DNA from: Planctomycetota bacterium
Lineage (GTDB): Bacteria; Planctomycetota; UBA1135; UBA2386
Assembly: GCA_947501605.1 (NCBI GenBank)
Contig: CANMWZ010000003.1
Location: 228,298 to 292,297, forward strand
Direction: 5' to 3'
Length of the DNA stretch: 64,000 nucleotides
The notes under the pieces: model-generated
What the model was told of the DNA's origin: nothing
The model's database searches: none
Seen by the model: only the letters and a program-made list of their open reading frames with translations
Translations under genes and position numbers: made by a program
In this document: piece after piece, positions 1-45,723 of the stretch
Layout: every line of letters starts with the position of its first letter
Numbering within the stretch: the stretch's first letter is position 1

Positions 1-35
1 CCAGCGACGACGACGTCGACATCGGAAGCGGGCAT
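1..35 (-). CDS. 5' end of a gene running off the window (MPASDVDVVVA...), possibly 50S protein uL4
   Basis: ATG at 35 with GGAG 9 nt upstream; lies downstream of rplC where rplD is expected. Too short to identify. Confidence 0.35.
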   Translation of the reverse strand, partial: MPASDVDVVVA

Positions 36-183
36 GTTTGAAAGCTCCGGGAGAGACGGCCGCAACTTGGGCAGCGGCCGTGGGCTCAACTCCAAGAACC
101 AGTCGGGCCCGTCTTTGGGCCCCAGAGTCTTGGGGCCCTAAGGCTTGGAGCCCAGCCGGCGCCCTTTCAGGCCGGCGCCGCTC

Positions 184-345
184 TCAGGCCTTCGCCTGAG
201 CGGCTGTCTCGTCGGGCTCAGTCACCCGAAGGACCACGCGGCTACCGATCGGAACTGCACGGTTCGCCAAATAGCCCTTGCCGAGCTTCTTCTTCTTGAA
301 CCGACCGCGGGTAGGACCGCCGTTCTTGCGCCTGGAACGTGCCAT
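184..345 (-). CDS. Small basic protein, 53 aa, not in the ORF track: MARSRRKNGGPTRGRFKKKKLGKGYLANRAVPIGSRVVLRVTEPDETAAQAKA
   Basis: Hand translation, ATG 345 to TGA 184; starts 41 nt after the rplC stop on the same strand; K/R-rich. Confidence 0.65.
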   Translation of the reverse strand: MARSRRKNGGPTRGRFKKKKLGKGYLANRAVPIGSRVVLRVTEPDETAAQAKA

Positions 346-386
346 GGTGTGTGCCTAGTTGTTATCGAAGGGTTGCTGCGCCGCGA

Positions 387-1118
387 TCAGCGCTTGATCT
401 TGACCTTGATGCTCTTGGAGAGCATCAGGTAGCCGTTGTTGTGCCCAGGAACGGCGCCACGCAGGTAGACGAGGTTGCGGTCGGCGTCGACCTTGATGAC
501 CTCGAGATTCTGAACGGTCACGCGCTCCACGCCGTAGTGGCCGGCCATTTTCTTGCCCTTAGGCACACCCTTGCTGATCGAGTGCATGCGGCCGAGGCCG
601 CCGGCCGTGCGATGGTTCAGCGAGTTACCGTGGGAAGTCGGCTGGCGATGGAAGTTCCAGCGCTTGATGGTGCCGGCCCAACCACGACCTTTGGTGGTTC
701 CAACCACGTCGACGTTGGTCACGCCCTCGAACAAGCTGGCGCTGACGTCGTCACCAGGTTTGACCGTTGGGGCCTCGCCGAGGCGGAACTCGCGCACGAA
801 GTGCTTGCTACCTTCCAGGCCGGCCTTCTTTGCTTGGCCCAGGGCGGCCTTGCTCGAGGTTCGGGCTGGGCGGTCATCAAAGCCCAACTGGACCGCGTAG
901 TAGCCGTCGGCAGCGCGCGTGCGCTCCTGACGACCGCTCTTCTTGCCGCGGTTGCCGGTGCTTGTGCGGTGGCCTTCAGGGTGCTCGCCAGCGGCGACCA
1001 CTTTGATCTGGAGGACCTTGCAGGGACCGGCCTGCACCACCGTGACGGGGATACAGGTACCGTCTTCGCGGAAAATCTGGGTCATGCCCAGCTTCTTGCC
1101 AAGGATGCCGAGGGTCAT
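387..1118 (-). CDS. rplC: 50S ribosomal protein uL3 with a basic insertion
   Basis: GKKLGMTQIF, PVTVVQAGPC, DGYYAVQLGF, KGKKMAGHYG and RGAVPG motifs. Confidence 0.98.
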   Translation of the reverse strand: MTLGILGKKLGMTQIFREDGTCIPVTVVQAGPCKVLQIKVVAAGEHPEGHRTSTGNRGKKSGRQERTRAADGYYAVQLGFDDRPARTSSKAALGQAKKAGLEGSKHFVREFRLGEAPTVKPGDDVSASLFEGVTNVDVVGTTKGRGWAGTIKRWNFHRQPTSHGNSLNHRTAGGLGRMHSISKGVPKGKKMAGHYGVERVTVQNLEVIKVDADRNLVYLRGAVPGHNNGYLMLSKSIKVKIKR

Positions 1119-1163
1119 CGATCGTGCTCGCGTGCGCGCAGTCTAGGAACGAAAGGGCGGAGC

Positions 1164-1192
1164 TTTATACGGACTGCAGGGGCCGGGCGCAA
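1164..1192 (-). promoter_or_regulatory. Sigma70-type promoter of rplC
   Basis: TTGCGC-17 nt-TATAAA on the minus strand, then GCTCCGCCCT. Confidence 0.65.
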
Positions 1193-30434: not shown

Positions 30435-30569
30435 TCAGCCGACGCGGAACTTGCCAGCGCGGCGGATCTTGCGCTTGATGACCTTGCGGCCACCAGCGGT
30501 CTTCGAGCGGGTGCGGAACCCGACCATCTTCAGACGCTTCGTCTTCGAGCGACGGACCTTGAGCTTCAT
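30435..30569 (-). CDS. rpmH: 50S ribosomal protein bL34, 44 aa, not in the ORF track
   Basis: Hand translation MKLKVRRSKTKRLKMVGFRTRSKTAGGRKVIKRKIRRAGKFRVG; GFRxRxxTxGGRKVI signature. Confidence 0.92.
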   Translation of the reverse strand: MKLKVRRSKTKRLKMVGFRTRSKTAGGRKVIKRKIRRAGKFRVG

Positions 30570-45519: not shown

Positions 45520-45723
45520 TTACCTCCTCTTGCCGCCGAGGCACTCGCGCATGTTGACTTCGAACTTGCCAACGCACAGGGCGTCCTTGCGCAACTGGCG
45601 CTTCCGCTTCGTCGTGCGGCGCACCATGATGTGCGAAGTGAACGCGTGACTGCGTTTGACCTTGCCGCTCTTGGTCAGCTTCATGCGCTTGACCACGGCC
45701 TTCTTCGTCTTCTGCTTGGGCAT
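45520..45723 (-). CDS. rpmI: 50S ribosomal protein bL35
   Basis: [21 protein letters not shown]...KRKRQLR. Confidence 0.96.

Follow-up and report, generated by a model that had tools for sequence, protein, structure and literature searches.

A conserved small basic protein encoded behind a relocated rplC in Planctomycetota, a candidate for a new ribosomal protein

Introduction

In the usual order of the S10 operon, rplC and rplD adjoin. In a planctomycete contig (CANMWZ010000003.1), a short open reading frame for a basic protein lies directly behind rplC, and the first-pass annotation took it for a lineage-specific ribosomal protein encoded between these two genes. The locus raises the question of whether this frame is a gene at all and, if so, whether its product belongs to the ribosome. 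We analysed a stretch of 64,000 nt around it, hereafter called the window, together with related genomes. Small lineage-specific ribosomal proteins have so far been accidental finds in cryo-EM maps. The protein described here is a candidate found from its sequence first, and it has cultured carriers. It belongs to a real, new and undescribed family of small proteins and is a reasonable candidate for a novel ribosomal protein.

Results

A real gene with a conserved N-terminal core

The proposed 53-aa frame, 41 nt after rplC, was intact, and its ATG and stop codon were verified (Table 1). The protein has a pI of 11.8. Its first half is rich in Lys, Arg and Gly, as had been claimed, with 11 K/R and five G within residues 1-25. 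The opposite (plus) strand is also open over the same interval, and conservation tracks the minus frame. An intact frame with ATG and stop was present at 30 of the 30 best family-level loci. We compared the gene with 14 relatives, picked out of 29 for their closeness, and found dN/dS values of 0.01-0.43 (median 0.10) for codons 1-25 and of 0.09-0.61 when 39 codons were used. The values were below 1 in 14 of 14 pairs, which all share one partner and are thus not independent. Position 3 of the codons was the most variable (majority base 0.67 vs 0.85 and 0.85 at the other positions). The small ORF is a real gene under purifying selection. It had been called unannotated, which was right for the ORF track of the first pass but not for public gene calls: a public collection of gene calls contains the protein on 28 contigs, and its relatives are named 'hypothetical protein [Planctomycetota]'.

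Table 1. Features at the small-gene end of the window (all on the minus strand)
Feature	Position	Strand	Remarks
HI0933-like flavoprotein gene, start	1..35	-	408 aa, runs off the window; PF03486, E 1.5e-75
GC-rich hairpins behind the small gene	60..183	-	no U run; folding compared with shuffles
Basic-protein gene (53 aa)	184..345	-	ATG at 345, TGA 186-184
Family core, residues 1-24	345..274	-	rest of the protein is a variable tail
rplC (uL3, 243 aa)	387..1118	-	TIGR03625, E 7e-69; the genome's sole copy; lies outside the S10 operon
uL3 loop before the DGY motif, with 27-aa basic insertion	909..1007	-	33 residues here
Promoter-like site before rplC	1164..1192	-	TTGCGC (1192-1187), 17 nt, TATAAA (1169-1164); by eye

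The synonymous codons of the gene resembled those of ribosomal genes, and 0.8% of 5000 length-matched segments scored as high. When gene 5′ ends were used as the control, 5.4% of 1037 matched the score, which is marginal. In 17 of 22 loci, the small gene scored above the neighbouring HI0933 gene. The codon-use evidence for ribosomal-type expression is mixed. Some very short Lys-rich ORFs of 26-34 aa in genome G000 also had ribosomal-type codon scores (C7:34828-34905, C32:15869-15783 and C55:14015-13914).

Conservation was concentrated in the core, with the pattern M-A-[KRH]-[SA]-R-x-K-x2-[GA]-x2-R-G-x2-[KR]-x-[RK]-K-[LM]-x-[KM]-G. In a balanced set of 31 members, M1 was found in 31, A2 in 30, R5 in 27, K7 in 27, R13 in 28, G14 in 29, L/M/I21 in 31 and G24 in 27. 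Residues 1-24 were free of gaps in every member seen except one, and the Met-Ala anchor was kept across four classes. The profile of f44, a family of a second class (families are given by working labels), matched the f1-type profile over residues 1-25 with a probability of 95% (E 2e-8). The members were 31 to about 120 aa long, mostly 35-65, and the sequence after the core was lineage-specific. Longer hydrophobic tails were of the RPVLRI type in part of f1 and of the RVH type in f7. Some members had long Lys/Ala tails of the histone-H1 type, and uL3 from those genomes also bears Lys/Ala-type tails. A search of 1.84 billion representative proteins revealed 66 proteins, all with the same pattern. 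In five database proteins (P0109, P0111, P0143, P0169 and P0175), part of the small protein was fused to unrelated sequence, identified in two of them as PF00118 and PF03952; these are most likely chimeric short contigs.

The second half of the protein had been described as beta-like. This was not borne out: AlphaFold2, run with 114 sequences, predicted an extended chain (pLDDT 70, pTM 0.33) with one short helix at residues 2-7 and no strand, and the second half is conserved only within part of one family.

Distribution in Planctomycetota

Profile searches found the gene in 59 of 60 genomes of f1 and in all six of f7, two families of the window's order. In f10, a narrow profile found it in 55 of 112 genomes. 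A wider profile recovered it from all 18 genomes, and the widest from all 17, with one doubtful case among these. A second class carried it in f44 (21/24) and f95 (2/2), with one partial match among 15 genomes of f59, and two further classes had one carrier genome each (1/4 and 1/11). The family is present as a single copy per genome, is near-universal in five Planctomycetota families and was seen in four classes. An f10-type query retrieved it from three cultured strains, Saltatorellus ferox Poly30, Engelhardtia mirabilis Pla133 and Rohdeia mirabilis Pla163.

The gene was not found in the remaining seven families of the window's order (0/42), although for a core of 24 residues not found does not mean absent. 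A second scan of these families gave partial matches alone (E at least 0.014, 5 of 35 genomes). In most of the phylum it was not found by profile search, and the shortness of the core limits the meaning of this absence as well. Outside the named families, matches weaker than E 0.002 proved, in the inspected genomes, mostly partial or in another frame and were dropped; three were full f44 members. Uninspected weak matches were left out of the carrier counts.

Relocation and probable replacement of rplC

The premise that the small gene interrupts the pair rplC-rplD did not hold, nor did the expectation that the next gene is rplD. That gene encodes the HI0933-like flavoprotein. rplC lies outside the S10 operon, and rpsJ and rplD sit on another contig, C1. 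In 4 of 4 f1/f7 genomes checked, these two genes were direct neighbours with no rplC between them, and an S10 operon gene between rplC and rplD was rejected on these grounds. The remaining eight families of the order had rplC between rpsJ and rplD in 23 of 23 genomes. Outside the order, rplC had neither rpsJ nor rplD in the fetched flanks of 6 of 27 genomes (L162, L163, L169, L170, L176 and L204). Thus, the exit of rplC from the S10 operon happened more than once in the phylum.

The uL3 protein of f1 and f7 is also unusual. All 41 parsed copies had a basic insertion before the DGY motif. Other Planctomycetota uL3 had 6-7 residues before DGY in 39 of 50 cases, the remaining 11 being unparsed. 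The insertion was modelled as a beta-hairpin (uL3 residues 52-67, pLDDT about 74-81). In f2 and f13, uL3 gave split TIGR03625 matches (L195, L196, L199 and L200), which points to other, independent insertions.

In quick trees of uL3, f1 and f7 grouped with one genome of another class (f59), with support of 96 and 93, and keeping the window's order together was rejected (p-AU 0.025). In the uL4 control, f1 and f7 stayed in their own order (support 92) and the grouping with f59 was rejected (p-AU 0.003). The AU tests used LG+G4, a simpler model, on alignments of 34 and 28 rows, and a first tree had already been viewed when the groups were named, so the transfer of uL3 is probable, not proven. 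The rplC of f1 and f7 is probably a horizontally acquired replacement, judging from these trees. If so, a core peptidyl-transferase-proximal protein and common phylogenomic marker would have been replaced in two whole families, and trees based on rplC would be misled.

The locus

The position of the gene next to rplC was conserved in two families: it lay directly behind rplC in 44 of 44 f1 and f7 loci, with a gap of 1-141 nt (41 of 43 loci parsed). In f10 and the other classes, 132 locus fetches (flanks of 1.5-3 kb, some genomes fetched twice) revealed no uL3, uS10, uL4 or uL23 gene nearby. As the gene is stand-alone outside f1 and f7, its linkage with rplC is one secondary event. The stand-alone f44 genes had strong purine-rich Shine-Dalgarno-like sites before the ATG. 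Of the 44 f1 and f7 loci, 39 also retained the HI0933 gene. This neighbour is not ribosomal and was kept almost equally, so synteny alone separates little and the operon argument is weakened. The genes past it are, as read by eye, presumably mnmE, nrdR and smc.

Both boxes of the promoter-like site and the 17-nt spacer were seen by eye in 8 of 11 loci compared, the window's own included; the consensus scanner made no call. Behind the small gene, the hairpins folded with z of -2.8 over 60-200 (2/200 shuffles) and -1.6 over 130-200. A terminator search behind the small gene found none, and the hairpins are possibly an attenuator or an RNA-stabilising end. An Rfam scan at the window gave no match near the gathering score. 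Near window position 134 (L001:1448), 15 nt were inserted into the hairpin spacer in run X2, and loose ends in X1 and X3 match this insertion, a strain variant.

The first-pass annotation also held that the small gene is co-transcribed with rplC. In 2 of 4 runs, a single RNA-library contig covered rplC and the small ORF (window 129-1132 and -99 to 1095), and in all four runs contig ends fell between 1095 and 1168. The promoter-like site and the shared contigs agree with co-transcription, but these assembled contigs carry neither strand nor level, possibly include DNA and indicate presence only.

Known families and the ribosomal protein inventory

Neither the protein nor 39, 40 and 16 aligned members had a match in Pfam or NCBIfam, except for three single-member Pfam matches (E 0.012-1.6). 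Among PDB chains there was no significant match (the best of the f44 profile had E 0.29), and a phage collection gave no match to the small protein. In the ESM Atlas, the window protein had no usable match, and a relative matched unnamed clusters only (at most 0.82). We found no description of the family in the family libraries or in the literature searched, a scope outside which most subscription journals fall. That literature and the top 50 uL3 fold matches contained no planctomycete ribosome structure.

The view that the protein is none of bTHX, bS22 and bL37 was upheld. No member matched PF17070, and a genome scan for bTHX was silent at the small gene in five carriers. Membership in bS22/mS38 was rejected in the same way, with no PF08213 match for any member and no long basic helix in the model. 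Family-wide profiles revealed no bL37 similarity at E up to 10 among Pfam, NCBIfam and PDB chain sequences, a comparison that used no named bL37 model. We also rejected bL27 (no PF01016 homology and no C-terminal barrel), the PVC small basic protein TIGR04137 (no family member matches the model) and the eL39 label of the JGI relative P0028, which is among the 39 members without a Pfam match at E up to 10.

Replacement of another ribosomal protein was considered too. bL27, bL32 and bS21 are all present in the genome, and the small protein is not a stand-in for them. bL35, bL31 and bS20 were identified by visual inspection alone (a bL35-like ORF lies at 45523-45723 of the window, minus strand), and uL2 looks complete. 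A split piece of a ribosomal protein was sought among 26 proteins of the genome; the best z was 2.2 and none was convincing. Replacement of bL34, an idea prompted by the available part of one study (10.1101/2021.01.31.429008), was rejected because bL34 is present. A divergent bL34 ORF occurred in four of five carriers, and the fifth had an over-cut-off match at a contig end. In the window, a divergent stand-alone bL34 of 44 aa lies at 30435-30569 (minus strand; 24.5 bits vs a cut-off of 25), with similar ORFs in relatives. The reported bL34 losses in Planctomycetes may partly be missed calls. A specific tie to the loss of uL30 was dropped, as this loss is phylum-wide (none of 401 Planctomycetota genomes had uL30 over the cut-off) and does not track the small gene. 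In the spc operon of G000 (C1, L049:6820-7853), uS5 runs straight into uL15. The carriers had no PF08213 match (0/5), no Thx over cut-off (0/5) and no uL30, so such ribosomal pockets may be free.

Discussion

We consider it somewhat probable (about 0.55) that the small protein is a lineage-specific ribosomal protein of the bL37/bS22/bTHX kind and a member of none of these families; it would bind the ribosome. It has the features of this kind, being short (53 aa), of pI 11.8, extended in the model without a fold of its own, single-copy, kept throughout the carrier lineages and under purifying selection. A position-fixed, gapless basic and Gly-containing N-terminal core that is foldless alone and is followed by a free tail has the build of a peptide that threads into a fixed RNA pocket. 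The single copy, near-universal retention, good ribosome-binding sites and, on mixed evidence, ribosomal-type codons fit a stoichiometric part. Against this reading, the range is patchy for a ribosomal protein, and bL37 and bS22 are helical whereas the small protein is not predicted to be so.

If the protein is ribosomal, its core, after removal of Met, would thread as an extended chain into an rRNA pocket. The fixed Arg and Lys residues would bind phosphates, Gly 10, 14 and 24 would permit tight turns and Leu/Met21 would pack, while the variable tail would hang out into the solvent. The 50S is slightly favoured as the subunit. The likely role is local stabilisation of rRNA, and the protein is probably non-essential, as bL37 and bS22 are. 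The gene would originally have been stand-alone. In the ancestor of f1 and f7, a foreign rplC would have replaced the copy in the S10 operon and landed upstream of the small gene, the transcription of which it would now drive.

The same anatomy and the patchy range would fit equally well a transient ribosome factor that would contact rRNA only in a particular state, such as assembly, hibernation or stationary phase, in the manner of L10K or of Sra/S22, the latter a stationary-phase factor. We regard this as possible yet unlikely. One f44 member matched DUF2462, which we take to be the L10K family, with E 0.012, but the match occurred in only 1 of 16 f44 members and lay below the cut-off, and the f44 profile found no L10K chain in the PDB. 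In addition, transcription behind rplC would suit growth-phase synthesis better than hibernation. L10K is described, in the available text of the source, as a human late pre-60S factor near the PTC (10.1101/2023.03.14.532478). Also doubtful is a non-ribosomal nucleic-acid binder, such as a nucleoid-condensing or RNA-chaperone peptide, with a fortuitous adjacency to rplC in two families. The gene is stand-alone in most lineages, the retention of HI0933 weakens the operon argument and the Lys/Ala tails of some members recall histone H1. However, these tails are unconserved and occur on uL3 of the same genomes, and a DNA condenser should not need a gapless, position-specific N-terminal core of 24 residues.

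The co-occurrence of the uL3 insertion, the operon link and the longer hydrophobic tails in f1 and f7 could mean that the protein serves the unusual uL3 as a dedicated partner and that its tail pairs with the 27-aa hairpin insertion. This seems improbable to us: f10, f44, f47, f69 and f95 have the core but lack the insertion, and the tail motif is missing from many insertion-bearing f1 members. The N-terminal tail of bL27 reaches the peptidyl transferase centre, and by eye the Met-Ala start and the K-x-GG-x-TR-GR-like run recall it. A truncated paralog or mimic of that tail, reaching the same centre, is nevertheless very improbable, with a profile-profile probability of 0.2% or less, a mean score against bL27 N-termini that falls inside the range of shuffled sequences (20% of them score as high), a z of 0.09 against the genome's own bL27 and an intact bL27 present. 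Hardly any weight is left for a peptide with a cis effect on the downstream gene (a leader or arrest peptide) or for an untranslated frame. Hairpins do follow the ORF, but the downstream genes vary between lineages, conservation is N-terminal with a variable distance to the stop, and dN/dS reveals selection at the protein level.

A more specific form of the ribosomal reading is that the family occupies a 50S pocket, such as the uL30/bL37 site emptied by the phylum-wide loss of uL30, and that in two families it was captured into an operon with a horizontally acquired, hairpin-bearing uL3. We hold this as unlikely. If it were true, a core ribosomal protein would have been swapped between classes and then remodelled with a new partner.

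The general reading, a ribosomal protein of the bL37/bS22/bTHX kind, can be set against the known small proteins. In the available part of one report, bL37 (24 aa, pI 12.0) and bS22 (33 aa, pI 12.75) were both found only by cryo-EM, and deletion of bL37 or bS22 in M. smegmatis caused no growth defect (PMC10081302). A mild phenotype is therefore expected for the small protein. The actinobacterial bL37 (MSMEG_1916) resembles it in being tiny, of pI about 12, stand-alone, missed by annotation and lineage-restricted, as far as the same report goes (PMC10081302). However, bL37 and bS22 are helical according to the accessible part of another source, and bL37 lies beside uL30 (10.1101/2023.04.16.537070), whereas the small protein is Gly/Pro-rich and predicted extended, and its carriers are without uL30. 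bL37 is a helical peptide in the H39-H42/H89/5S pocket; the free model of the small protein is helical only at residues 2-7. The bS22/mS38/eL41 group (PF08213) is similarly short and very basic, was found by cryo-EM and is scattered over phyla in that source, but bS22 is a bent helix with 61% K/R in Borrelia (10.1101/2023.04.16.537070). bTHX/Thx (PF17070, about 27 aa) is likewise basic, Gly-containing and of patchy range, and the part of the literature available reports it in one planctomycete (PMC3353972). The PVC small basic protein (TIGR04137) is also small, basic and from the same phylum, but it is encoded by another gene, which scored over cut-off at a different place in all five carriers. 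The likeness to the N-terminal tail of bL27 (PF01016) is a superficial basic and Gly motif after Met-Ala; the small protein has no beta-barrel domain, and the genome encodes its own bL27.
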